The position numbers and the translations under genes are program-made. The notes beneath the pieces were generated by a model that ran no database searches, was not told the origin of the DNA, and saw nothing but the letters and a program-made list of their open reading frames with translations. Positions 307 to 33,102 of a stretch of 41,934 nt of DNA are shown in pieces. The first letter of the stretch is position 1; every line of letters starts with the position of its first letter. The stretch lies in UHGV virus genome UHGV-0119548; one strand, written 5' to 3'. This DNA is from a virus.

Positions 307-337
307 AAAAAAAACGGGGCTTATGCCCCGTTTTTTA
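307..337. terminator. bidirectional intrinsic terminator
   Basis: hairpin ACGGGGC-TTAT-GCCCCGT (314-331) flanked by an A-run (307-314) and T-run (331-336); lies between convergent genes. Confidence 0.6.
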
Positions 338-3300
338 TGCTGTCGTTGATGTTCTAAATGATCCGGTGCCTCTTGCTACTATCATTGTTGGAGAATACAA
401 CGCGGTACAATATGCGTATCCTTCAGATGATGATGTTTGAGGACAATATATTTTCCCGATAATATCTGATGCTTTTAAACCAGAAAAAGCGCATTGCACT
501 GTTAATGTGCATCCACCATAAGGCACGTAATATGAAATTGTTTTGTTTTTATCTCCGCAACTAAACGTTACGTTATAAGTGGATCTATATTCACCAGACA
601 TTAATGAAATAGTCGCCATAAGCATAACTGATTTCGTCAATGCATTATCCGTGCTGTCTTTATATGTGATGGTTGCGCTATAACTTCCGTTATGCCCAAG
701 CACTCGATCTGGACCAACCCCCATGTTAGCAACGTCACCGACAAATGACTTTGCCTCTACTGTACCTTTAAACTTCCCGCTTGTGGCCTGAATCTCACCA
801 GTGAATTTACCAGATGTTGCGTACACCGTACCGCGTACAGTGACGTTGTTGAACTCCGCATTGCCGTTTTTATTTAGCATCCAGCCAGCCGAACCAGCTT
901 TATAGTTGGTTGACTGAATTTGCTGCGCAATCTTCGCGGTAGTGATTGATGCGTCTCTGATCCACGCATCACGGATGTAGCAAGCACCGTTAGTAACATA
1001 GAACGGGGTCTGATAGGAGCCACCTGCCGCAGTCATAAGCACGAAACGGTCAACGAGGAAAATACACTGCGATTGAACGTTAGTCCCGCTACCAGTAAGG
1101 CCGAGCGACATTCCTGTAGCGTATTTCATACCGTTTTTATCAGTGGCAATCTTAATTGAATATGACGCATCAACGTTACCTTTGAAGTCAGTCAGTGCTT
1201 TTGATGTCGTTTCTATCGCCGTTGTGTTTCCGTTAATAGTTACTTTCAACTGGTCGATTCTGGTTGACAATGCCTCGTCTGCCGTTGCCATAGCCTGTGA
1301 CCATTCCGTGATGCTTGAGTTTACATCGTCGAAAGATGCCGAGATCTGGCCAAATTTTTCCGCGCTTGATGTTTCATGCGTAGAAAGTGCAGTTGACACT
1401 TCGGATACTTTCGAATTAATCGTACTGGTAAGCGATGAGTTAAGGCTGCTGATTGCGTCAGTGCGTGCATTCTTCTCATCTGCGATCGCTTTATCCATCC
1501 TGGTTACGTTGCTTGTCACCTTGCTATCGAGCGTGGAAATTGACGCATTAACCCCGCTAATAGCTTCTGCGCGTGCGCTCGCCTCATCTGCGATTGCTTT
1601 ATCAAGACGGGAAACGCTCGCGTCGGTTTTGCTTTCAAGACTACTGACGCTGGCGTTAACGTTGCTAATAGCTTCTGCGCGTGCGCTCGCCTCATCTGCG
1701 ATTGCTGTGTCTACCCTTGCTATTTCCGCTTTTGTTTTTCTTTGTCCTTTCCTGTATTTCGCCTCAATAACAGTGCTCATCTTGCTTTGCGCCATTGAGT
1801 TATTAATAAGCGCCAGAGATGCGTTTTGCAGACCTGCTTTCGCCTGAACTATCTCGTCGCTGTTTTTATCAACCTCACTTTTAACGCTGCCAAGCGACGC
1901 GCTGATACCTGATATCGCCTGAGCGCGTGTGCTTGATTCGTCAGCGATAGCTTGATCAAGACGGCTAACACTGGCATTTGTGTTATTTTCAAGCGTTGTT
2001 AAATCAGCTTTAACCACTGTTATTGCGTCGCTTCTTGCCTGCGTTTCATCTGATATTGCCTTATCGAGGCGCTTAACACTGGCGTCAGTTTTCTTGTCAA
2101 GCGTTGAGATACTTGCGTTCACGTCGCTGATAGCCTGAGTACGCGCACTTGTTTCGTCTGCAATTGCCCGATCAAGACGGTTTACGCTGGCGTCAGTTTT
2201 CTTGTCAAGATTGCTTATTGAGGCATTTACACCGTTAATAGCTTCAGCGCGAGCGCTGGCCTCGTCAGCTACTGCGCGTTGCACATTAGAGATCTGACCT
2301 TTAAGGTTTGTGTCCATCACATTCATTTCTGCCGTGATGGTTTCCAGTGATTCCGCTGTCGCTTTTTTCTCTTCAGCGATAACGTTGTCAATGCGGTCAA
2401 TTTCCGCTTTCGTCTCTGTCCTGCCTTTCTTGTACTGAGCGGTAAGAGTTACGCGAGTGTTAGTCTGTGCAAGCGAGTTATTAATAAGAGCAAGTGAGGC
2501 GTTTTGCAGACTTGCTTTTGCTTGCGCTAGTTCGCTGCCAACTTTTTCGCTAGACACCTCTAGCGAGTCGATTCTCGACTCATGCTGTCCAATATCATCG
2601 GCGTTTTCCTTAACCTTTTTATAAAGATCTTCCGTTTCTTTTTTAAGTGTGTCTGTGTCAGCTTTTATTGATCCTGTTTCTATGGTTAGGTTGTCAGTTT
2701 CAGTCCTTAAATCGTCAGTTATATTGGTCAGATTATCAGTTGCAGTTTTGAGGTTGTCAGTAGCAGTTTTAAGGTCATTCGTAGCGCTTTCGATAAGATC
2801 AGTGCGGTCGCCTAGATCTTTAATGTCACCAACCATTTCTTTAAATTGTTTGGAATTCATTACGTCTTTGGTGACGTAATCGGTAATTTCGTCAAAGTTT
2901 TCTGTTGGCTTACCTGACGCTTCCACAAAGTCAGACACACCAAAAGCGTTACGCGTGCGCACATAAACGTAATATATGTGACCTGTATTCATGCCGCCAA
3001 ACGTCCACTGATGACCACGCCCCGTATATTGTGCTTTAGTGGTTACTGATGCCGGGTCGGTGATCTGTGTTTCACCTGAGTAATAAAACTCGTAACTGGT
3101 ATCAGTGGTAAGCGTTGTTCTGCTGATCGGATACACTGTTGCCTGGAATACACCAGGAACCCAATTAACGCCAATCGGGGCTGCTGGTGCACCAATAACC
3201 AGATCAACTATACTCTCAGCGCCCTTCATGCCCGTATCATTACGACCGCGAATGCCTAATGAGTAGGTTCCTGAATCAATGCCATAAAAATCATAACTGT

Positions 3301-5305
3301 AATTCGTAGTTTCGTAGCTTTTAACCACAGCGCCGTCGGCGTTATACACGCGAATCTCAAAGGTCAGGCGACGCGTTGTCGTCTGTGTTTCCCATGTTGC
3401 GCGACATTGAACCGTTTCAGATCCAACGTTTAACACCTTCAGATTTTCAATGTTCGGCACGCGGAAGTGATTAAGCGTGTCGTTATTGATCTCGAAGATT
3501 GCGCCATTATCGACTACGGCCTGCTTATGTGGATCATGCTGTGCGGCCTCGATGGTGTATACGCTGTTATTTTCTGTTTCTGCTACGCTGGTGATTCGAC
3601 ATAAAACGGGTTTTGCTGCGTTGGTTGATGCAGCAAAAACAGTACCGTTACGAATCCATGCCGGGGCGGATGCAAGGGTAATTTTGTTTCCGCTAACTCC
3701 AGTGATCTGGTGTTTTTTAAACTTGCCATCGCTATCAAGCAGGCTGATCGTATCTCCAGCGGAGATATATTTGGCATCAACCTTGTCTACAGTTATTACT
3801 TTGCCATTGTTCGCAACGATGCGACCGCCTAAGCGAGCGCCTGCGCGGTTATTGTCCAGGATTTCGATAATATCACCTGGCGTAAAGTGAATCGCGTCAC
3901 GGGCCATTTTAAACGTGAATTTTGACGGCTCGCGTTTTGCTGTTTCTATCAGCCATTTGCCAGCGCGGTACGCTTGCCCGCGTGACGTGCAACCGAAAGC
4001 CTCTAGCGTGGTTTCGTTATAACCATCGCGGGCGATCAGTTCATCGTCTGCCACGTATTCTTTTGATTGCTCCCAGCCGTTTTCCGGGTCAGTCCATGAC
4101 ACAATCACGGCGTTGTAAGATTCTGCGCGGGCAATACTTGAACGAGTAAACGCGCCATCAACTACGTTTGCATTTGTAATGGTGGCGATTGGATCTTGTG
4201 GCGCATCAATCATCACGGTAAGGCGCTGCCCGTCCCATAATGCAATACCACGGAACATGCCTGCAATATTATCCAGTAAGTCGCGTGCGCTAATTTGTTC
4301 CGTGATGTAAGCATTAAGCGTCATGCGAGGTTCAAAGCCGCCGTAACCATCGCTAACCAACTGATCGCAGTATTGGGAAAGCGTATATAATGCGCCATCG
4401 TCAACATCAATGTAACCAGCGTGGCGAGCAAGTCCGAAACGTTCATTTTTAACCAGATACCGGAAAAGCCATGCAGGGTTATTGGTGTACGCTTTTTTAA
4501 ATCCACCAAGCCATAAACCGGAATACGTGCGCGTTTCAGGGTTATAGTTGTCCGGCACATCAACAATCAGTCCGCGCAGATGATAAGTGCGGGCAGGAGT
4601 ATCAGTATACTGGTCATGGTCAATTACCGCGCCAGCTACAGCGGTATGAGGGTAAGACAGGTTATCGTCGATTATCTCGCTGTAACTGCTCCACCGCGTA
4701 TCATTACGAAGAAGATCGCTTTTGCTGTCTGGCGTTACGCGACGAACGCGAATATCAAACGGCTTTTCATCCGGTGCGTTGATAACGTGAGCTTCCAGGT
4801 ATTCACCACTCTGTTTACCAGGCCCGATCGTAATGTCTTTAACCAGCGACCACGTCGATGATGATGATGGCTTAACATCAACCATTAACATGACTGACGT
4901 GTTATATTGATTGCCCTTATCATCTGACTGAACTAGAGCATCAACGCCAACATTCAATCTAACGCGGGTGACGTTTGGGTCTGAAACGGTCCTGATTATT
5001 GGCGTATCGTGAGTTACCTTCGCATTGACAATAACAGTTGATTCAATGGCGTTAAAACCGTTAATCGGTGATTGGTCAGCTGTGCCATTGCGCCACGCTA
5101 TACTTACCCCAGGGATTGACGTATTTCCGTTGGCGTCAGTAACAGGCGTGTCATTAAGCATCACATCATTTAATGGCGCTTTCTGGTTTACCGGGCCGTA
5201 TATCGGCCCCTCGCTGAGAATGTCTAAAACACGATAAAACTGTTTATGATACAGGTTATCGTTCAATAAATGTGGTGTTTTGGCTTTGCCGCCGCCGCTA
5301 CTCAT
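335..5305 (-). CDS. J: central tail fibre / host specificity protein J homolog (1656 aa) with internal coiled-coil repeat insertion
   Basis: long ORF at end of tail module after L-K-I homologs; N-terminal and central blocks resemble lambda gpJ as recalled; C-terminal about 250 aa unlike lambda J. Confidence 0.9.
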   Translation of the reverse strand: MSSGGGKAKTPHLLNDNLYHKQFYRVLDILSEGPIYGPVNQKAPLNDVMLNDTPVTDANGNTSIPGVSIAWRNGTADQSPINGFNAIESTVIVNAKVTHDTPIIRTVSDPNVTRVRLNVGVDALVQSDDKGNQYNTSVMLMVDVKPSSSSTWSLVKDITIGPGKQSGEYLEAHVINAPDEKPFDIRVRRVTPDSKSDLLRNDTRWSSYSEIIDDNLSYPHTAVAGAVIDHDQYTDTPARTYHLRGLIVDVPDNYNPETRTYSGLWLGGFKKAYTNNPAWLFRYLVKNERFGLARHAGYIDVDDGALYTLSQYCDQLVSDGYGGFEPRMTLNAYITEQISARDLLDNIAGMFRGIALWDGQRLTVMIDAPQDPIATITNANVVDGAFTRSSIARAESYNAVIVSWTDPENGWEQSKEYVADDELIARDGYNETTLEAFGCTSRGQAYRAGKWLIETAKREPSKFTFKMARDAIHFTPGDIIEILDNNRAGARLGGRIVANNGKVITVDKVDAKYISAGDTISLLDSDGKFKKHQITGVSGNKITLASAPAWIRNGTVFAASTNAAKPVLCRITSVAETENNSVYTIEAAQHDPHKQAVVDNGAIFEINNDTLNHFRVPNIENLKVLNVGSETVQCRATWETQTTTRRLTFEIRVYNADGAVVKSYETTNYSYDFYGIDSGTYSLGIRGRNDTGMKGAESIVDLVIGAPAAPIGVNWVPGVFQATVYPISRTTLTTDTSYEFYYSGETQITDPASVTTKAQYTGRGHQWTFGGMNTGHIYYVYVRTRNAFGVSDFVEASGKPTENFDEITDYVTKDVMNSKQFKEMVGDIKDLGDRTDLIESATNDLKTATDNLKTATDNLTNITDDLRTETDNLTIETGSIKADTDTLKKETEDLYKKVKENADDIGQHESRIDSLEVSSEKVGSELAQAKASLQNASLALINNSLAQTNTRVTLTAQYKKGRTETKAEIDRIDNVIAEEKKATAESLETITAEMNVMDTNLKGQISNVQRAVADEASARAEAINGVNASISNLDKKTDASVNRLDRAIADETSARTQAISDVNASISTLDKKTDASVKRLDKAISDETQARSDAITVVKADLTTLENNTNASVSRLDQAIADESSTRAQAISGISASLGSVKSEVDKNSDEIVQAKAGLQNASLALINNSMAQSKMSTVIEAKYRKGQRKTKAEIARVDTAIADEASARAEAISNVNASVSSLESKTDASVSRLDKAIADEASARAEAISGVNASISTLDSKVTSNVTRMDKAIADEKNARTDAISSLNSSLTSTINSKVSEVSTALSTHETSSAEKFGQISASFDDVNSSITEWSQAMATADEALSTRIDQLKVTINGNTTAIETTSKALTDFKGNVDASYSIKIATDKNGMKYATGMSLGLTGSGTNVQSQCIFLVDRFVLMTAAGGSYQTPFYVTNGACYIRDAWIRDASITTAKIAQQIQSTNYKAGSAGWMLNKNGNAEFNNVTVRGTVYATSGKFTGEIQATSGKFKGTVEAKSFVGDVANMGVGPDRVLGHNGSYSATITYKDSTDNALTKSVMLMATISLMSGEYRSTYNVTFSCGDKNKTISYYVPYGGCTLTVQCAFSGLKASDIIGKIYCPQTSSSEGYAYCTALYSPTMIVARGTGSFRTSTTA
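1400..2350 (-). repeat. in-frame tandem coding repeats (about 105-108 nt, 35-36 codons) inside J
   Basis: exact 43-nt copies at 1556-1598 and 1664-1706; further near-copies (e.g. 2081-2103 vs 2185-2207); protein units like KTDASVSRLDKAIADEASARAEAISGVNASISTLDSK. Confidence 0.7.
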
Positions 5306-7230: not shown

Positions 7231-7272
7231 TTTCTCACCTTGTCATTCTGTGATCTGCGTCACGCTAAATCA

Positions 7273-7345
7273 TACCAAAATGGATTGATCGCGGTTTTTA
7301 CAATATGTATATTTTACTCAAACGGAAGCATAGTTAACAAAATGG
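7273..7345 (+). promoter_or_regulatory. two copies of the recurrent ACAAAATGG motif upstream of plus-strand island A
   Basis: TACCAAAATGG at 7273-7283 and AACAAAATGG at 7336-7345, the latter directly upstream of RBS GGAGGTG and ATG 7360. Confidence 0.35.
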
Positions 7346-8300: not shown

Positions 8301-8497
8301 ACGCCATCAAGCAAAAACAAAACTTCCTTCCCTTCTCTGGATCTGCACCCCACATACCCATCACCAACGTCGTGAAGATACCATATATCGCCATTATCAG
8401 CTTTTACAGCAAGGTCGTTGATCTCATAGTCATCAAACAATGTGAAAGCGTCAGTTTTGTCCACTACACAAGTCCCGTACATATTAACCACCATCAT
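8297..8497 (-). CDS. hypothetical acidic protein (66 aa), coupled to M
   Basis: ATGA start/stop overlap with M stop at 8494-8497; ends in terminator. Confidence 0.45.
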   Translation of the reverse strand: MMVVNMYGTCVVDKTDAFTLFDDYEINDLAVKADNGDIWYLHDVGDGYVGCRSREGKEVLFLLDGV

Positions 8498-8847
8498 CTA
8501 ACAACTTGCTCAAACGTTGCGTTAAGCGTGTATACAGGACCGTCTTTCGTCATACTCCAGCTACGGCAAACAAAAAGCCTTTGCACGCCATCCATCGACG
8601 GCGACCAGTAAAAAGCCTCGACAGCGCCGCGCGCCATCAAGAATGCTTCAGCCTGGATCGCCACGTTTCCACCATCACCGCATCCTGCGCTACTGCCTTT
8701 AAAGACCAGGGTGTAGCTGTCAAGCAATGTGTTGATCCCTTTCGCCTGGCGCTGTTCATAACCATCACCAAGTTTGACAACGGACACATTCGGTTCCCTG
8801 GTTACGCTGTAGCTTCGTTGCGGCGTCCATTTGAACACTTCCGGCAT
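8494..8847 (-). CDS. M: minor tail protein M-like (117 aa)
   Basis: LGDGYEQR and C-terminal FEQVV resemble lambda gpM as recalled; position after tape measure; RBS GGGGGGG. Confidence 0.85.
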   Translation of the reverse strand: MPEVFKWTPQRSYSVTREPNVSVVKLGDGYEQRQAKGINTLLDSYTLVFKGSSAGCGDGGNVAIQAEAFLMARGAVEAFYWSPSMDGVQRLFVCRSWSMTKDGPVYTLNATFEQVVR

Positions 8848-8863
8848 AAAACCCCCCCATAAG

Positions 8864-8947
8864 TTACATTTTGTATATATCTTTACGCGCTTCTACGCGA
8901 AAAATAAGATCATTGTCACAATGATTATAGCTAGTTTACAAAATGGC
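8864..8947. promoter_or_regulatory. divergent regulatory region: inverted ACAAAATG(G/T) motif pair flanking a conserved 25-nt element
   Basis: TTACATTTTGTATA at 8864-8877, TTTACAAAATGGC at 8935-8947, 25-nt element at 8882-8906; between minus gene M and plus island B. Confidence 0.4.
8882..8906 (-). promoter_or_regulatory. conserved 25-nt element TTTACGCG(C/T)T(T/G)CTACGCGAAAAATA, copy 1
   Basis: near-identical second copy at 21166-21190; both lie 20-60 nt upstream of a minus-strand structural gene start (M; portal). Confidence 0.35.
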
Positions 8948-9016: not shown

Positions 9017-9172
9017 ATGAAACGCTATGTAGTAGTAATGCTAAATAACGCATTCGAACAAGTGGAAATAGCAATCGTTAAGGGTTTCGACGACGCATTC
9101 AAATACGGTCAATTCATGATGAATGCGAAAGAAGATGAATACCGGGACTTCTTCCTGAAGGCACTTAACTAA
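9017..9172 (+). CDS. hypothetical protein (51 aa), island B
   Basis: ATG preceded by GAAGGAGG; product MKRYVVVMLNNAFEQVEIAIVKGFDDAFKYGQFMMNAKEDEYRDFFLKALN; below track length cutoff. Confidence 0.45.
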   Translation: MKRYVVVMLNNAFEQVEIAIVKGFDDAFKYGQFMMNAKEDEYRDFFLKALN

Positions 9173-9189
9173 GGATGATGGGGTGAGTT

Positions 9190-9444
9190 ATGAAACTGGT
9201 AGCGATTGACAGAAATCTGAAAGCACAGAAAAACGCACAGGACCGGATCATCAAGAAAGGTAAGGAATTACTTAAAGCCTTTCTGAGAAAAGAAGTTTAC
9301 CCCAAAAAGTTACGCGACGGTTACGGATACAAAATGGATATCAATCTTGATCGGAGGCTGTTTAGCGAAGATTTGAAGGTTTGGTTAATTGTTGAGCACC
9401 ATGCCTATAACAAGTTATGTGGCGTGAAAGGCACTCATAAGTGA
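9190..9444 (+). CDS. hypothetical basic protein (84 aa), island B
   Basis: ORF with GGGGTGAG RBS; followed by terminator. Confidence 0.5.
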   Translation: MKLVAIDRNLKAQKNAQDRIIKKGKELLKAFLRKEVYPKKLRDGYGYKMDINLDRRLFSEDLKVWLIVEHHAYNKLCGVKGTHK

Positions 9445-9494: not shown

Positions 9495-9536
9495 ACGAAA
9501 AATAACCCCGGCATTGCACCGGGGTTTAGTTTATTT
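9495..9536. terminator. bidirectional intrinsic terminator
   Basis: hairpin CCCCGG-CATTGCA-CCGGGG (9506-9524) with TTTAGTTTATTT on plus and A-run-derived T-run on minus; tape-measure stop at 9531. Confidence 0.6.
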
Positions 9537-11873
9537 GCGGCGAGGTTGCAACATTCCGCCTGGTCTTTGAGATTCCCTTGTTATCATTTTCATGGCTACA
9601 CGTTCCATTGTTAATTCAAGTCTGCGGCTGTCTTCGTCGCTGAATCCGTTCGTGGTCTGAATGCTGATACTGACAGGCATACTAATACCGCCACCGCCGC
9701 CAATATCACGGCCCGGAATAACTCTGCCGTTCTCGCCAGGAATCATATATTGATTCCCGTTAGATGTCTGGAATAGCTCCGGCCTGTTGTGTTCCCCTAC
9801 ACGGTACATATTGCCACCAATGACGCTACCACCATTAAAGCGACCGCCGCCAAAAATTGACGTAGCCAGCGACATGATCGCAGTGAGTGCCGCAGAACCA
9901 GCCGCCGCCCATGCGCCGCCAGTTGACGCCGCTGTTGCCGCCGCCGCCGGGGCCGCCGCCGCAGCAATCTGGCCTTGCGCCGCTACCGCGCCCGCCGTGG
10001 TACTTGCCTGAGTCGCTTTGCTTTGCGTTTCCATCATGATCTGATCTGCTATCCAGTTTGCAGCTATGTCTGAAAGCCTGTTACCGATATTCCCGAGGAT
10101 ATTGCTGCCTAAGTTAGCAAAAACATCACTCAATGATTGAGTACCATTTAACAGGCCAACAAGTGCATTGCTCATACCACCTTTAAGGCCATTAACGCAA
10201 TCACCGATAAGGCTGTTTGTGTCGCTTTGCGCCTGCCATTGCTCCCACTTCAGATCGCGGATCTGTTGCTCATAGGCTAACAGTTCCTGTTTCTGTTGCG
10301 CTTCCGTCACGCCCAGGTCGATAAGCATTTGCTTACGGACGGCCCATTCATTTTGAACCTGCTGAATAGGGTCTACTTCGCCCTTTAGCTGATCCATCGG
10401 GCTTACTATTTGCTCCCATTTGTCGCGCAATTCCTCTACCGGAATTTGTGCTAATTCTTCCTTTAGTTCCTTACCTATCCCTTTTTGCGCGGCGCGGTAC
10501 TCAAGGAGAGTGATTTTACCCTGGGCGAATGCAGCATCAATGGCCTTGCCGCTCTCTAACGCTTTGCGCATAGCGGCGGCGTCTTTGTTGTACTGGTCAG
10601 AAACGCTTATACCTTTATCGCCAAGACGATCAGCTTCAGATTTCTTCTCTTTTTTCTGTTTTTTCGGTTTGTCTACTGGCTTGTCGAATCCGGTAATCGC
10701 TCCGTCATTGGCGGCATTCTGTTCATTTTTCCTTGCTTCTTCTGTAGCCTGGATTGCTGCGGTCAGATCATCCTGTAGTTGCATGACCTTGCCAACGGTC
10801 TTACCGTATTTCTTCTCGTAGTTGCTGTTATATTCGTCGGTTTGCTCTCCTACGACCTCCTTCATCCATTTGTAGGCATCCATTAGTGCCTTGATTGGCG
10901 TCACCATTGCGATGATCTTCTCGGCTACCTCGCCAGCCTTGATTCTGACATCTTCAAACATGTCGATGAATTCGCCACCAGCCGTCTTCAGGGTGTTAAA
11001 GCAGGTTTTAGCGAAATCAGCGCCTTCACCTAAAGCCTTAACACCTTTCGTTACAAGATCGATACCAGCAACAACCGTATCGGATACACCGAAAAGATCA
11101 TCCAATTGCTCAACAAGTCCCATAACCTCGACTTTAAGCTCATTCAGGGCCATGCCGGATGTGCGCGGCAACTGCGCAAACTTCTCGTTTGTTTCCTGCG
11201 TAGCCGCCTGGATTGCGTTAACCATCCTTTCTGCCGTGATCTTACCGTCCAGCATTTCGGCGCGGAATTGGCCCATTGATAACCCCATCTGGCGTGCCAT
11301 TGTCTGTACGATGGTCGGGGTGTTTTCTAACAGGCTGTTGAATTCTTCAGCACGCAACACGCCACCGTCGATAGACTGACGGAATTGACGCATTGAGTTT
11401 GACATCTGCTCCGCTGACGCGCCGCCCAACGCCCCCATTTTCTGAATCGTACCTACCAGGTTAAGCAATTGCCCTTCAGTGGCGGACGTGTTCTTCAGTG
11501 AGATAGCTAAGCCTTGCCACAGATCCCCGGTATCCTTCATGCTTTGGCCTGTTTCTTTTGATATTGCTTTCAGGCCATCAAAAACCCGTCCGGCGGACTC
11601 CGCATCGCCCGTAAGCATTTTGATTTTTACGCGAAGCATTTTTGCTTGCTCCGCCATATCCATAAATTGACGCACGGCCTCCGCAGCAATTAGCAAATGG
11701 ATAACCCTGGTCAGTGCCTTGATGGATGTTTTCAGGGTGTTTACCTGGCGGTCAGCCTGTTTTGCGCCGCGCTCTATACGCCCAAAGGCCTGGTCTGCCT
11801 GTCGTTGTGCAACGAGAAGTTGACCAGTTTTCGCATCAACTTCGTAATAAATTGTACCTACACTGGTAGCCAT
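9531..11873 (-). CDS. tail tape measure protein (780 aa)
   Basis: long alpha-helical Ala/Gln-rich ORF with Gly-rich C-terminal region, between chaperone-position gene and M. Confidence 0.9.
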   Translation of the reverse strand: MATSVGTIYYEVDAKTGQLLVAQRQADQAFGRIERGAKQADRQVNTLKTSIKALTRVIHLLIAAEAVRQFMDMAEQAKMLRVKIKMLTGDAESAGRVFDGLKAISKETGQSMKDTGDLWQGLAISLKNTSATEGQLLNLVGTIQKMGALGGASAEQMSNSMRQFRQSIDGGVLRAEEFNSLLENTPTIVQTMARQMGLSMGQFRAEMLDGKITAERMVNAIQAATQETNEKFAQLPRTSGMALNELKVEVMGLVEQLDDLFGVSDTVVAGIDLVTKGVKALGEGADFAKTCFNTLKTAGGEFIDMFEDVRIKAGEVAEKIIAMVTPIKALMDAYKWMKEVVGEQTDEYNSNYEKKYGKTVGKVMQLQDDLTAAIQATEEARKNEQNAANDGAITGFDKPVDKPKKQKKEKKSEADRLGDKGISVSDQYNKDAAAMRKALESGKAIDAAFAQGKITLLEYRAAQKGIGKELKEELAQIPVEELRDKWEQIVSPMDQLKGEVDPIQQVQNEWAVRKQMLIDLGVTEAQQKQELLAYEQQIRDLKWEQWQAQSDTNSLIGDCVNGLKGGMSNALVGLLNGTQSLSDVFANLGSNILGNIGNRLSDIAANWIADQIMMETQSKATQASTTAGAVAAQGQIAAAAAPAAAATAASTGGAWAAAGSAALTAIMSLATSIFGGGRFNGGSVIGGNMYRVGEHNRPELFQTSNGNQYMIPGENGRVIPGRDIGGGGGISMPVSISIQTTNGFSDEDSRRLELTMERVAMKMITRESQRPGGMLQPRRK

Positions 11874-11914: not shown

Positions 11915-11953
11915 ATACAAAATGGCTTTACTTCAACGACTCCATTTTGTATA
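11915..11953. promoter_or_regulatory. perfect 12-nt inverted repeat TATACAAAATGG / CCATTTTGTATA in divergent intergenic region
   Basis: copies at 11915-11926 and 11942-11953, 15-nt spacer; TGTATAAA resembles a -10 with TTTACT as -35 17 nt upstream for gene at 12001. Confidence 0.4.
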
Positions 11954-12000: not shown

Positions 12001-12660
12001 ATGAAACGGTTAGCAAAAGTGGCAATGATTGCGGCGGTATTGGGTCTGGTTGGTTGCAATGAGGATAATGAAAAAGCGCCTATAGTGACCACTCAAGAAC
12101 AACAAGCATTAGCAGAGAAAAATGCTAAATGGCTTGCAGAACAACAAGCAAAACAAGCCGCATATGAGGCACAGTTAGCAAAAGAAAAAGCTGGTAAACA
12201 GTGGCTTGTGGTCGAAAGAAAAGATGATATGCAGGACACAAAAAACGTGTTCCTTTTCGTGAAAGCAGAACATTTCAGCGGAAGTCTTGATGCTTTCCCT
12301 ACACTGAAAGCACGGGATGAAAACAAACCTGTATTAACAATCGCTTGCCAGGGTAATAAAACAAAAATGTTCGTAGCATGGTCAAACCATGTAACTGACG
12401 CTGGGGACACTACTTATATTAACTACCGGATCGGCGATCACAAAGCTGTAGCTACTGAATGGAGTCGGTCAACTAACTATAAAGCTCTTGGATTATGGAA
12501 CGGCAAAAAAGCCATTCCAATGATTAAAAAACTGGTTAACGAAAAACAATTTATCATTGAAGTAGTGCCGGAAGCTGGCGACATTGAGAAAGCAGTGTTT
12601 AACATTGATGGTCTTTATAACCACATCGACAAAGTGAAAAACGCTTGCAACTGGAATTAA
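12001..12660 (+). CDS. lipoprotein (219 aa), island C
   Basis: signal peptide MKRLAKVAMIAAVLGLVGC with lipobox LVGC; RBS GGTGGG. Confidence 0.7.
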   Translation: MKRLAKVAMIAAVLGLVGCNEDNEKAPIVTTQEQQALAEKNAKWLAEQQAKQAAYEAQLAKEKAGKQWLVVERKDDMQDTKNVFLFVKAEHFSGSLDAFPTLKARDENKPVLTIACQGNKTKMFVAWSNHVTDAGDTTYINYRIGDHKAVATEWSRSTNYKALGLWNGKKAIPMIKKLVNEKQFIIEVVPEAGDIEKAVFNIDGLYNHIDKVKNACNWN

Positions 12661-26177: not shown

Positions 26178-26201
26178 GCAAAAACCCGGCGCGGGGCCGG
26201 G
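26178..26201 (-). terminator. intrinsic terminator immediately upstream of holin (tR-prime-like)
   Basis: hairpin CCCGGC-GCGGG-GCCGGG (26185-26201) followed on minus strand by TTTTTGCTTT. Confidence 0.55.
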
Positions 26202-26229
26202 TAATTACAATTTCGCATTGTTAGGAAAT

Positions 26230-26258
26230 ATTTTAATCTGTTTGTTTGCGCTCTACAA
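26230..26258 (-). promoter_or_regulatory. candidate sigma70-type promoter (late, pR-prime-like)
   Basis: minus-strand -35 TTGTAG (26258-26253), 17-nt spacer, -10 TAAAAT (26235-26230); about 25 nt upstream of the terminator hairpin. Confidence 0.3.
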
Positions 26259-28459: not shown

Positions 28460-28500
28460 ATAACAAAATGGCACTGCCGAAACAATGCCATTTCGTAAAC
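28460..28500. promoter_or_regulatory. imperfect inverted ACAAAATGGCA / TGCCATTTCGT motif pair
   Basis: ATAACAAAATGGCA 28460-28473 and TGCCATTTCGTAAAC 28486-28500; intergenic between two minus genes. Confidence 0.35.
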
Positions 28501-28519
28501 CTTGTGATACAGATCACAT

Positions 28520-28990: not shown

Positions 28991-29248
28991 TTATTCCGGT
29001 TTACTGCCTTCGCGGGCGCAAAACTCCGCGATCTCACGGAAATCATGCACTATGCGATAAATATACAAACCAGCGGCGTTATTGATATGGCTAACATAAG
29101 CGAAATAAACTTTATCATCATCGCCAGTTATCGCCATTGCACCATCACCGCCCGGTGCGCCGTGGAGTTGAACGCCGCAATAGATCTTCCCTTCTTCAAA
29201 AATATTGCGGTCGCGCGTCTGCAATACCTCAAAATATAAATGTTTCAT
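28991..29248 (-). CDS. paralog family member 2 (85 aa from ATG 29248)
   Basis: FEEGKIYCG...AMAITGDDDKVYFAY; RBS AGGGG. Confidence 0.55.
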   Translation of the reverse strand: MKHLYFEVLQTRDRNIFEEGKIYCGVQLHGAPGGDGAMAITGDDDKVYFAYVSHINNAAGLYIYRIVHDFREIAEFCAREGSKPE

Positions 29249-29258
29249 TGTTGCCCCT

Positions 29259-29471
29259 TTAATAACGTTCAAAGCTGGCAGCAAAACCTACACCGGATAT
29301 TTCACCGCCTTCATAGCTCGGCCTGAATACCCATATTTCGTCATGATTATCAATCAAGGCAAGGCAATTACTCATTGTGTGTGCTTCATTGCCATAAACG
29401 ATGTGAACGTCATAAATACTCCCAATCGTGAAAACACTGTCATTGCTTGAGTATGAGCATTTAACTTGCAT
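29259..29471 (-). CDS. paralog family member 1 (70 aa)
   Basis: GSIYDVH...CLALIDNHDEIWVFR. Confidence 0.55.
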   Translation of the reverse strand: MQVKCSYSSNDSVFTIGSIYDVHIVYGNEAHTMSNCLALIDNHDEIWVFRPSYEGGEISGVGFAASFERY

Positions 29472-32190: not shown

Positions 32191-32380
32191 CCTTCACCTC
32201 GCGACGATAGATTTCTACTGGCTTAACCGGAATAGCGTTAAAATCACCTTCATCCAGTGCGGCAATAAACGTTAGCGCCAACCGTGCTTCAACACCGCTT
32301 AAATACTTGCACCATGCCTCACCGTTATAATCTTTAAAAAGAATAATCACTTTTTTCATGTTTATCTCTTGTTGTTTCAT
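32180..32380 (-). CDS. hypothetical protein (66 aa)
   Basis: ATG overlaps Q stop by 1 nt (TAATG); RBS GGGGTGA. Confidence 0.5.
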   Translation of the reverse strand: MKQQEINMKKVIILFKDYNGEAWCKYLSGVEARLALTFIAALDEGDFNAIPVKPVEIYRREVKDEA

Positions 32381-33102
32381 TATTCACCCCGTGTCACTCG
32401 TTTAATTTCGTTATCAGCCCGCGCCTCTTCTTTGAACAATTCAGTAATGGCGTCTTCATAGAAAGCACGGTATTTCTTCCACCACGTTGATCGGCTTACC
32501 GGAAATACAAGCTGATTAACCGCACGCCGGACAAGATCTACAGGGAAACGCGAGTACCCGCGCCCGCCGCAATGCTGGCACGTTTTGAACGCTGGCATTT
32601 CCGCTGCTTCACTGGCTGCTTTATCCGGTATCTCGCCGCGCCCTTTGCATCGTTTACAATGATTGCGAACTTTTCCATGCCCCTTGCATTTTTTGCAAAG
32701 GTGTTTTTCTCCGTAGTCGTCAAACGTAAATTTATATCCGCCGCAATCCATACAAGTTTTTTCTGTCGCGGCACTCTGGCAGTAATCCCGAAACGCGAAA
32801 ACGGCAACAAGAATAATAAGATCATTGCGTTTGTCCTCGTCCAACTCCATGACGTATTCGTAATCTTTTGCCATAGCTCTTAAACGCTCTGTAAGCAAAA
32901 CTACGGCCCTGTGTTTTTCGGCTTGCGATAATTCCATCTTCCCTAAAAAAGCGCTATAACCAAGCTCTACGCGCGATTGCGCCATACCTGCTGCGGTTAG
33001 TGCATCAGTAGTATTAAGCGAGTCTGGGGACGTGCCCCGGCTTTCATCTGACAAACGCGGTGATTTTGGGAGGTGGAATTTAAGAATAGATTCCAAATTC
33101 AT
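32380..33102 (-). CDS. Q: late-gene antiterminator Q-like protein (240 aa) with four CxxCxGxG zinc-finger repeats
   Basis: N-terminus MNLESILKFHLPKSPRLSDESRGTSPDSL...AAGMAQS resembles lambda Q as recalled; central Cys-rich region; downstream of NinG-RusA. Confidence 0.8.
   Translation of the reverse strand: MNLESILKFHLPKSPRLSDESRGTSPDSLNTTDALTAAGMAQSRVELGYSAFLGKMELSQAEKHRAVVLLTERLRAMAKDYEYVMELDEDKRNDLIILVAVFAFRDYCQSAATEKTCMDCGGYKFTFDDYGEKHLCKKCKGHGKVRNHCKRCKGRGEIPDKAASEAAEMPAFKTCQHCGGRGYSRFPVDLVRRAVNQLVFPVSRSTWWKKYRAFYEDAITELFKEEARADNEIKRVTRGE

Follow-up and report, generated by a model that had tools for sequence, protein, structure and literature searches.

We observed a 25-nt sequence element that occupies two fixed positions in a temperate E. 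coli phage, upstream of the portal gene and of a lambda M-like minor tail protein gene, that is strongly constrained and confined to one phage lineage, and that is also present in islands of E. coli genomes. The element is real and had not been described before; it is almost certainly regulatory and very probably serves as a switch for late gene expression. The DNA analysed here, referred to as the window, is a stretch of 41,934 nucleotides from an mEpimmI-type temperate E. coli phage whose structural region is ~88% identical to that of Enterobacteria phage mEp021 and, likewise, to those of six other mEpimmI phages. The mEpimmI phages are temperate, Nus-dependent, non-lambdoid siphoviruses of E. 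coli, and the paper on them makes no mention of the element (PMC11893012).

The two copies are TTTACGCGCTTCTACGCGAAAAATA (plus strand, 8882-8906; copy A) and TTTACGCGTTGCTACGCGAAAAATA (plus strand, 21166-21190; copy B), and direct comparison bore out the original prediction that they agree at 23 of 25 positions. No further match with three or fewer mismatches was found elsewhere on either strand of the 41.9-kb window, and 100 dinucleotide-preserving shuffles of the window gave 0 matches, none being expected by chance. The repeat is in fact longer than 25 nt and extends over 35 nt at 86% identity (8872-8906 vs 21156-21190; repeat family D15). On the coding (minus) strand both copies read TATTTTTCGCGTAG-NNN-CGCGTAAA followed by sRTRTATdC: the core is TATTTTTCGCGTAGAAGCGCGTAAA in copy A (8882..8906) and TATTTTTCGCGTAGCAACGCGTAAA in copy B (21166..21190), and the 3' extension of copy A, GATATATACA (8872..8881), can be aligned with that of copy B, CATGTATTCA (21156..21165), which runs into the portal Shine-Dalgarno sequence. 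Three bases of this extension (T35, A38 and C41) were invariant among 39 distinct sequences, both copies pooled. The direct CGCGTA repeat that had been predicted on the coding strand is present in both copies with a period of 10 nt and, because CGCG is self-complementary, the element also contains an imperfect inverted repeat, TTTTCGCG...CGCGTAAA.

Nearly all genes of the window lie on the minus strand, and each copy had been placed 20-60 nt 5' of a minus-strand structural gene, namely the portal gene and minor tail gene M. Both gene assignments were confirmed by Pfam and by the mEp021 annotation, and the distances hold. Copy A ends 34 nt from the ATG at 8847 of the minor tail protein gene (8494..8847, minus strand; Phage_min_tail, E = 1.6e-28; homologue of mEp021_69), and for copy B the distance is 22 nt to the ATG at 21143 of the portal gene (19773..21143, minus strand; Phage_portal_3; 97.6% identical to the mEp021 portal) and 10 nt to its Shine-Dalgarno sequence, AGGAG (21152-21156). 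An in-frame ATG at 21164, which opens the longest ORF and is the start in the mEp021 annotation, is without a ribosome-binding site and is probably not the portal start; nor does the start codon lie further downstream, since the alignment with portals of outgroups begins at residue 1 of the portal N-terminus.

The surroundings of the two copies differ. Copy B lies between the co-oriented large terminase (21292..22776, minus strand) and portal genes, with no terminator found by our scan between the terminase gene and the element; the terminase is of the headful (Sf6/ES18-like) type. Copy A is situated in a 169-bp divergent intergenic region because an opposite-strand island (9017..9444, plus strand), encoding a 51-aa ORF and a ParE-like toxin of 84 aa, stands between the tape-measure gene with its terminator (9504-9526) and gene M. 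The late region is unusual in being interrupted by three opposite-strand islands with terminators. The phage encodes an antiterminator of the Q-lambda family, an assignment that draws on PMC9388147, and a lambda-like late promoter precedes the holin/lysis genes (TTGTAG, 17 nt, TAAAAT, an AACAAT pause-like hexamer and then a terminator); promoter-like sequences are also seen 5' of the tape-measure and tail-L genes.

To avoid bait bias, relatives were fetched by portal or M protein homology, and the element itself was not used as bait. The original prediction had proposed looking for the element at syntenic sites of relatives, and we found it at every one: all 50 portal-homology loci (84-98% protein identity) carry it, exactly in 49 and with a single change in 1, as do all 31 mEpimmI-type M-homology loci (exact in 22, with 1-2 changes in the others), where the M-copy variants fall into eight types. 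In mEp021 both copies are at syntenic places. Outside the lineage, 49 M homologues of other phages (67-70% identity) had nothing resembling the element, and the outgroup phages Midgardsormr38 and ES18, whose portals are 57-61% identical, have no such spacer.

Nucleotide diversity was computed among distinct sequences, with the element taken as 24 nt. At the portal copy it was 0.010 in the element, 0.139 in the 25 columns upstream, 0.009 from the element to the ATG, 0.221 at third codon positions and 0.039 at codon positions 1 and 2; the corresponding values at the M copy were 0.049, 0.194, 0.176, 0.297 and 0.046. Overall, the element has a diversity of 0.005-0.05, the non-coding DNA beside it 0.14-0.19 and third codon positions 0.22-0.30, so that the constraint on the element is about that on amino-acid-changing codon positions while neighbouring non-coding DNA varies freely. 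At the M site a constrained element is thus surrounded by variable DNA, and such variation as the element shows lies nearly all in its three central bases. These comparisons indicate that the element is under strong purifying selection.

Searches of larger collections gave the same picture of a lineage-restricted sequence. A 37-nt query made from the portal copy and run against 50,697 phage records found a full match only in the seven known mEpimmI phages, each of which was matched at two places. Scanned for exact matches to the pattern, the viral collection gave 84 loci, and no fewer than 33 of its contigs, ~50-57 kb long, contain exactly two copies and none contains three. The pattern TTTACGCGNNNNTACGCGAAAAAT retrieved mEpimmI-type contigs almost exclusively, and a looser pattern yielded chance or coding matches only in the viral collection, one of them in a picorna-like RNA virus. 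A flank-anchored metagenome scan produced 13 relevant matches and no new variants, a portal protein search of species-representative genomes produced no match, and a pattern for the 5' half of the element gave, in the species-representative genomes, mostly chance or coding matches together with two further island-like contexts. Neither a third nor an antisense copy was found in the window or in the complete mEp021 genome; the only recurring motif besides the element in that search was the unrelated ATACAAAATG.

The element is also found outside mEpimmI-type prophages. The 37-nt query matched 51 of 5,426 complete E. coli genomes; a query made from the copy A region matched 35 genomes, which are the prophage carriers, and ~16 of the 51 hold a single copy (90-97% identity), all in a setting that is not of prophage type. 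In strain GF3-3 this copy lies in a ~12-kb island between eutA and eutB, beside intZ, where an integrase gene, small genes and an AlpA/HTH_17 gene come before the element, and genes for a 103-aa protein, further unknowns, a protein resembling small terminases and a tape-measure protein of 733 aa come after it, in that order. The terminase-like protein shares 48% identity in its N-terminus with the TerS of the window, and the tape-measure protein aligns along its whole length with that of the window at 38% identity. Other islands share the order of an HTH protein, an optional 150-200-aa protein, the element and a homologous ~100-aa protein, which is widespread in E. coli assemblies (one cluster occurs on 925 contigs). 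Gram-negative PICIs have an integration zone with AlpA and a late zone of captured helper genes, and the island layout agrees with this organization (PMC10111431). The viral collection contained no island copies. The presence of the element in these AlpA-bearing islands also points to a satellite family not characterised before, whose members bring small-terminase-like and tape-measure-like genes of their own.

The island copies are of portal type and share with the portal copy ~30 nt of upstream sequence. Their degeneration is informative: one CGCG was lost without compensation in some copies (L251, L253, L284 and L288), and in three types (L255, L271 and L282) only TATTTTTC-R-CGTAG-MAR-C is retained and the 3' half has been replaced. 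Two island types carry GATTTTACG or GATTTCACG, and several islands (among L286-L294) are without the element, the 100-aa gene there abutting the upstream gene. The most persistent part of the island copies is thus the 5' half and the centre, not the hairpin. Because the element occurs in three contexts on the sense strand, at the head of a morphogenetic block in the phage and of the late zone in the islands, our analysis strongly suggests that it is a cis-acting signal read by a common trans-acting factor. The regulatory role in late gene expression that had been proposed gains further support from the copy that heads the island late-gene zone.

We then considered the sequences 5' of each copy. 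An invariant TATAAT (8924..8929, minus strand) lies 17 nt 5' of copy A among bases that vary, and is probably the -10 of a promoter that drives transcription of gene M; a consensus scan missed it because its -35 (GTGAAG) is weak. Upstream of copy B, a conserved CACAAC box (21207..21212, minus strand) lies 16 nt 5' of a TATTTT, and there C-CAC-AA is conserved and the next 9 columns are variable. The portal copy and five satellite-like islands share one arrangement, an A-tract, 6-7 nt, CAAC, 16 nt and TATTTT, within which the spacer is variable. Requiring a -35 and a -10 with at least 4/6 bases each, 16-18 bp apart, our scan found no sigma-70 consensus promoter on the sense strand overlapping either copy or the copies in three islands. 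TATTTT itself agrees with the -10 consensus at 4/6 bases, and the -35 position is occupied by nnCAAC or TATAAT. Most M copies have CATTTT instead of TATTTT; the bases equivalent to -11A and -7T are kept in TATTTT, CATTTT and GATTTT and thus in nearly all copies, and lost in GTTTTT (L146) and in the island sequence GATTTC (L288). No terminator was found after the element in the window or in three islands.

On these grounds we tentatively favour a reading in which the element is the core of a factor-dependent internal late promoter together with its leader. The cassette would mark the starts of late units, that is the head unit (portal), the tail-tip unit (M) and the captured late zone of the islands. 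Its 5' half would be a weak internal promoter core in need of a further factor, with TATTTT as the -10-like hexamer and TCGCGT as a G+C-rich discriminator. Transcription would start near the central TAG, which would give leaders of ~35 nt (portal), ~47 nt (M) and up to ~50 nt (islands), and the 3' half, GCGTAAA-sATGTAT, would form the first ~20 nt of this 35-50 nt leader with its ribosome-binding site. We presume that the factor is a phage product synthesised no later than the late phase, and islands with the same cassette would turn on their late genes alongside those of the helper phage; the start site, the factor dependence and the timing are what we infer from this arrangement.

Several features are consistent with such a core. 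The fixed distance from CAAC to TATTTT, across a spacer that varies, would suit a promoter in which an UP-like tract accompanies a poor -35, and the persistence of the A (-11A) and the last T (-7T) of TATTTT counts in the same direction. Three island types retain (T)ATTTT(T)C-R-CGTAG-MAR-C with a replaced 3' half, a pattern more in keeping with a promoter core than with a hairpin or symmetric operator. Internal restarts of transcription are plausible because opposite-strand islands and terminators segment the late region. There is precedent, too, in the late promoters common to P2 and its satellite P4, in the SaPI packaging operon and in Gram-negative PICIs, which capture late-gene clusters of their helpers (PMC10111431). 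Against this reading, no sigma-70 consensus overlaps the element, which has practically no -35. The context of copy A differs, with TATAAT 17 nt away, no CAAC box and mostly CATTTT; -11A is lost in one phage sequence (L146), and two island types read GATTTTACG or GATTTCACG. Strict conservation of the 3' half in phages is unexplained by a core alone, and Q with the lambda-like late promoter could by itself transcribe all late genes. Furthermore, a Pfam search of the 20 small ORFs from the Q gene to the lysis genes gave no usable activator or sigma-like candidate. With respect to the candidates named in the original prediction, a late promoter survives only as such a core, and an activator site upstream of a promoter does not fit the portal copy, which is 10 nt from the Shine-Dalgarno sequence.

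The hairpin leads to a different explanation, that the element is an operator in the RNA leader, a short G+C stem-loop that governs how the portal and M messages are translated or processed or how stable they are; we regard this as possible but rather unlikely. The sense-strand RNA is predicted to fold as CGCGU-AGNN-RCGCG, extendable by U-A pairs across a one-base bulge, and this hairpin, flanked by a U-tract and AAA, would be recognised by a common protein or RNase, either in the polycistronic late mRNA or, before gene M, in a transcript from the TATAAT promoter, which would put the whole of copy A at ~+11 to +35. In copy A the putative hairpin (8886..8899, minus strand) has arms CGCGU (8899-8895) and GCGCG (8890-8886) and loop AGAA, and U/A pairs can lengthen its stem to 12 bp with one bulge; at -10 kcal/mol it beats shuffled sequence (z = -2.4), 3 of 200 shuffles folding as well. 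The hairpin in copy B (21170..21183, minus strand; arms CGCGU, 21183-21179, and ACGCG, 21174-21170; loop AGCA) folds at -6.1 kcal/mol (z = -1.5). The orientation of the element is invariably sense, 22-36 nt 5' of the start codon; in 33 of 39 distinct sequences the partner of the closing U is G or A; and one lineage (L165/L166) tolerates the loss of 1 nt from the centre. The loops are AGAA, AGCA, AGAG, AGCU and AGCG, with GGAA as the lone GNRA variant. The phage copies show two stem substitutions, both C-to-U, which leave a G-U pair in the sense-strand RNA only, a pattern that is weak evidence for RNA, arising in ~1 in 4 cases by chance.

Pairing itself discriminates little. Paired cells make up 98% over the 39 distinct phage sequences, but only as a result of near-invariant stems, and shuffles for covariation are uninformative because the variation is so small: among eight pairs tested, 5 are invariant, 3 changed on one side only (all wobble-compatible) and 0 on both sides, so that there are no compensatory double changes. 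The RNA element in the original prediction survives, with no support from covariation. In the islands, moreover, four out of five changes in the stem disrupt pairing and have no compensating partner, and the 3' arm is missing from three island types. The same stem sequence is found in both paralogous copies, which argues that sequence rather than shape is recognised; Rfam gave no match; and the window and the complete mEp021 genome contain no complementary third copy that could act as an antisense partner.

Recognition of sequence could equally take place on DNA, and here the palindrome TTTTCGCG-N6-CGCGTAAA, or the two CGCGTA repeats, would bind a dimeric or tandem protein, a repressor or an Xis/AlpA-type winged-helix protein, that gates transcription into the head and tail-tip units from a site on or just 3' of internal promoters. 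The conservation is at the level of sequence, with the variation in the three central bases resembling an uncontacted operator spacer; the site would lie at +11 to +35 of the TATAAT promoter in copy A and overlaps the promoter-like layout in copy B. The CGCGTA repeats are one helical turn apart, the Q21 binding element is a documented case of two protomers on direct 6-bp repeats (PMC6606751), and an AlpA/HTH_17 gene lies directly 5' of the island copies. We nonetheless consider such an operator unlikely. The dyad is made asymmetric by the conserved central TAG and a one-base bulge, the island copies keep only one half of it, and a helper-encoded repressor is a poor fit for a satellite that needs silence in the absence of its helper. 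No binding protein was identified, and the HTH protein encoded by the phage integrase gene's neighbour is only marginally similar to the AlpA-like proteins of the islands (26% over 47 residues). A related and very unlikely alternative is that an antiterminator of Q or AlpA type loads here, with the 5' half as its protein-binding element and AAAsAT (AAACAT or AAAGAT) as a -10-like, sigma-dependent pause element ~10-16 nt past a start at the central TAG. Q proteins and AlpA require a binding element and an early-transcribed -10-like sequence (PMC6606751, PMC9371919); nAnnAT hexamers are present in the phage copies (AAACAT, AAAGAT), with CATTCT, CATCCT and CAATCT at a similar distance in islands, and the phage has a Q-lambda-family protein and the islands AlpA-like proteins. 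Yet a Q-lambda element belongs between -35 and -10, where here there is a variable spacer, the resemblance to the phage's own late-promoter region is matched by 15-34% of random 80-nt windows, and no terminator follows the element. Finally, the element might have no regulatory role: it could be a linker used in recombination, or left over from module exchange, that was copied from one site to the other and reached the islands along with captured late genes. Both copies are at module boundaries (copy A beside the variable toxin-antitoxin island), a ~70-nt stretch beside copy B is present in some genomes only, islands are known to capture late-gene clusters (PMC10111431), and swaps of the central triplet (GAAG in two portal copies, GCAA in one M copy) suggest gene conversion. 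This explanation is highly improbable given that a relic would decay neutrally, yet diversity in the element is 10-40x below that of third codon positions and flanking non-coding DNA, and that orientation and distance to the start codon are held in all three contexts.

A number of known signals were rejected. The element is not an intrinsic terminator: the stem has its T-run in front of it when read on the minus strand and an A-run behind it on the plus strand, and the scan reports none. A classical upstream activator site of the P2 Ogr or Mu C type, whose centre should be ~40-60 bp 5' of the transcription start, with the -10 and the start between site and gene, is ruled out by geometry at the portal copy because a centre near -41 or -61 puts the transcription start inside the portal gene. 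It is also not a lambda-type nut site, as the hairpin has no CGCTCTTTA-like boxA on its 5' side, where the flank (T/C)(T/C)ATTTTT abuts the stem directly, and the loops are not GNRA-like; nut sites of the mEpimmI group carry the boxA GCTCTTTAAAAA or CGCTCATTAACAA. NagC/Mlc operators are 23-bp quasi-palindromes with invariant TT/AA at +/-5 and 6 (PMC4288165), and these positions in the 23-bp dyad of the element are CG/GC. For a Q-utilisation site of the Q-lambda family we looked for an element between -35 and -10, a pause element at ~+1 to +6 and a terminator downstream; the CAAC-TATTTT stretch is variable and a terminator is absent after the element, which makes such a site unlikely, and it is the phage's own late promoter, 5' of the lysis genes, that shows these features. 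A gapped alignment with the phage's own late promoter was obtained, but 15-34% of random windows score as well. No Rfam score in the whole 41.9-kb window was above the gathering threshold, which leaves no known RNA family. A pac or cos site was set aside on account of the two copies 12 kb apart, their sense orientation, their fixed proximity to start codons and the headful terminase.

Several well-studied systems resemble the element in part. The late promoters of P2 (the Ogr/delta-dependent PP, PO, PV and PF) have counterparts in its satellite P4 (Psid and PLL), these sites being TGT-N12-ACA dyads centred near -55, 5' of a recognisable -10, and the packaging operon of SaPIs responds to the late activator of the helper. 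As in P2/P4, we see a short element repeated before the head/portal and tail blocks and also in a satellite that would follow the helper's late signal; unlike the P2/P4 sites, the element has no TGT-N12-ACA dyad and is too near the gene for an upstream activator site, and unlike P2, which has no Q-type antiterminator, the mEpimmI-type phage has one. The Q21 binding element consists of two direct TGAGCA repeats and is accompanied by a -10-like pause element (PMC6606751). Like the Q21 and AlpA elements, ours has two direct 6-bp repeats near a -10-like hexamer, in a promoter-proximal position and a phage late-gene context; it differs from the Q21 elements in its period of 10 bp rather than 8, in not lying between -35 and -10, and in having no terminator after it. 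It also resembles the mEpimmI nut sites of the N-like Gp17 system, of which the mEpimmI paper names nutL, nutR1 and nutR2 only (PMC11893012), in its short G+C stem, the U before a purine-rich loop and its location on the sense strand of a long rightward operon. The boxB hairpins of the three mEpimmI nut sites are CGCU-GNRA-(A/U)GCG, whereas the element has no boxA (GCTCTTTAA), an AGNN loop and a late-region location. As with the CUUCGG hairpins of T4 and the RNase III sites of T7, a short hairpin is repeated between cistrons just 5' of ribosome-binding sites; those stem-loops are defined by structure and vary in sequence from site to site, whereas here the sequence is fixed and the structure is not kept in islands, and the 5-bp stem is too short for RNase III.

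These results bear on a group of phages that, in one human-faecal E. coli phage collection, are reported to be as common as lambdoid phages (PMC11893012). Apart from a predicted Q, the control of late genes in mEpimmI phages is undescribed, and the element provides a concrete handle on it as well as a specific sequence tag for these phages. The most valuable by-product of the analysis is the link to AlpA-bearing islands with TerS-like and tape-measure-like genes of mEpimmI type, which makes both a helper-satellite relationship and a late switch directly testable; the island copies, if functional, would show how islands sense the late phase of their helper. It is possible, though we hold it to be doubtful as a joint claim, that the element is the recognition site, in DNA or in leader RNA, of a late regulator encoded by mEpimmI phages and that it has been copied by AlpA-bearing E. 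coli islands (some at intZ, eutA/eutB) to time their own TerS-like and tape-measure-like genes. If true, this reading would establish a new helper-satellite pair with a shared late switch that operates alongside a Q-lambda-type antiterminator.

Besides the 25-nt element, we found a second repeated motif in the window, CCATTTTGTA(TA), with 17 sites at one mismatch or fewer against 4.8 expected, a count that was equalled in none of 100 shuffles. Sites of the motif lie at 7336-7345, 8866-8875, 8937-8946, 9328-9337, 11916-11925, 11942-11951, 28462-28471, 28488-28497, 34562-34571, 34627-34636 and 38148-38181. In intergenic regions they frequently form inverted pairs, and TATAAA or TATGAT-like hexamers come after them, for instance ahead of the tape-measure and tail L genes and of the opposite-strand islands, the plus-strand gene blocks that interrupt the minus-strand late region. 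In the related phage mEp021, the motif stands immediately upstream of the -35 hexamer of the early rightward promoter. CCATTTTGTA may mark a family of promoters, or else the operator to which a phage regulator binds. Pairs of the motif are adjoined by TGTGA-N6-TCACA palindromes; perfect or near-perfect examples, which fit the CRP-site consensus, were located at 28503-28518, 34603-34618 and about 7262-7277. The sequence CAGATCACA is shared by the tape-measure and tail L genes, lying downstream of the promoter-like sequence of each.

Two CCATTTTGTA sites also flank copy A, the copy of the 25-nt element upstream of gene M. In the leader of this gene (8861-8870, minus strand), the window and its relatives have a conserved ATGTAAC that precedes the M ribosome-binding site by 10-20 nt and lacks a Shine-Dalgarno sequence of its own; the window has it as an ATG-TAA start-stop, many relatives as a 7-codon mini-ORF. 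Near copy B, the copy upstream of the portal gene, an extra stretch of about 70 nt (about 21215-21290) separates terL from the portal-proximal block. This stretch is present in the window and about one quarter of the relatives, and is missing from mEp021. It contains a perfect palindrome, CTTCGAAAAATTTTCGAAG (21255-21273), which does not resemble a terminator.

Of the opposite-strand islands, the one that separates the tape-measure gene from gene M (9017-9444, plus strand) codes for a 51-aa protein together with a ParE-like toxin (Pfam PF24732); these probably constitute a toxin-antitoxin pair, and a bidirectional terminator lies nearby (9504-9526). A further island, located between the tape-measure gene and the tail assembly genes (12001-12660, plus strand), codes for a protein that has a type VI secretion VasI domain (PF11319, E = 1.7e-16), an unexpected occupant of a tail gene cluster.

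The holin gene (ATG at 26159) is preceded by a lambda-like late promoter on the minus strand (about 26181-26258), composed of TTGTAG (26258-26253), a 17-nt spacer and TAAAAT (26235-26230). Next come AACAAT, a -10-like hexamer at about +1 to +6, and a strong terminator (about 26201-26181). This arrangement fits the Q-lambda-family protein whose gene lies at 32380-33102. For the N-like Gp17 system, the nut sites could be read straight from the sequence, in the window at 34500-34545 (minus strand) and in mEp021 at 10960-11005 (minus strand) and 12220-12270 (plus strand): boxA, GCTCTTTAAAAA or CGCTCATTAACAA, is followed by a 7-8 nt spacer and a boxB hairpin (UCGCU-GCGA-AGCGA, CCGCU-GGAAG-UGCGG or GCGCU-GAAA-UGCGU).

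Further features were seen on the minus strand. Many very short ORFs overlap one another in a series (23260-24190) that lies between terS and the gene at 24191-24733. They specify hydrophobic peptides, each ORF having about 25-40 codons and its own ribosome-binding site; a similar start region appears again at 29236-29264. The tail fibre/host-specificity gene (335-5305; 1,656 aa) includes a tandem repeat of seven copies of a 108-nt (36-codon) unit at 1437-2281.

Finally, E. coli islands with lengths of about 8-12 kb were recovered that form a family, comprising L251 (NZ_CP053259.1 1333600-1345800), which carries a portal-type copy of the element, and loci L253, L254, L255 and L282-L294. One member is located between eutA and eutB, at the intZ site, and another appears as an 8-kb record labelled 'plasmid' (NZ_CP062859.1). 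Their genes encode an integrase, an AlpA/HTH_17 protein, often an HNH_3 endonuclease, a conserved protein of about 100 aa, an Sf6-type small-terminase-like protein and a full-length tape-measure-like protein. These islands resemble satellites, with mEpimmI-type phages or relatives of these as helpers.
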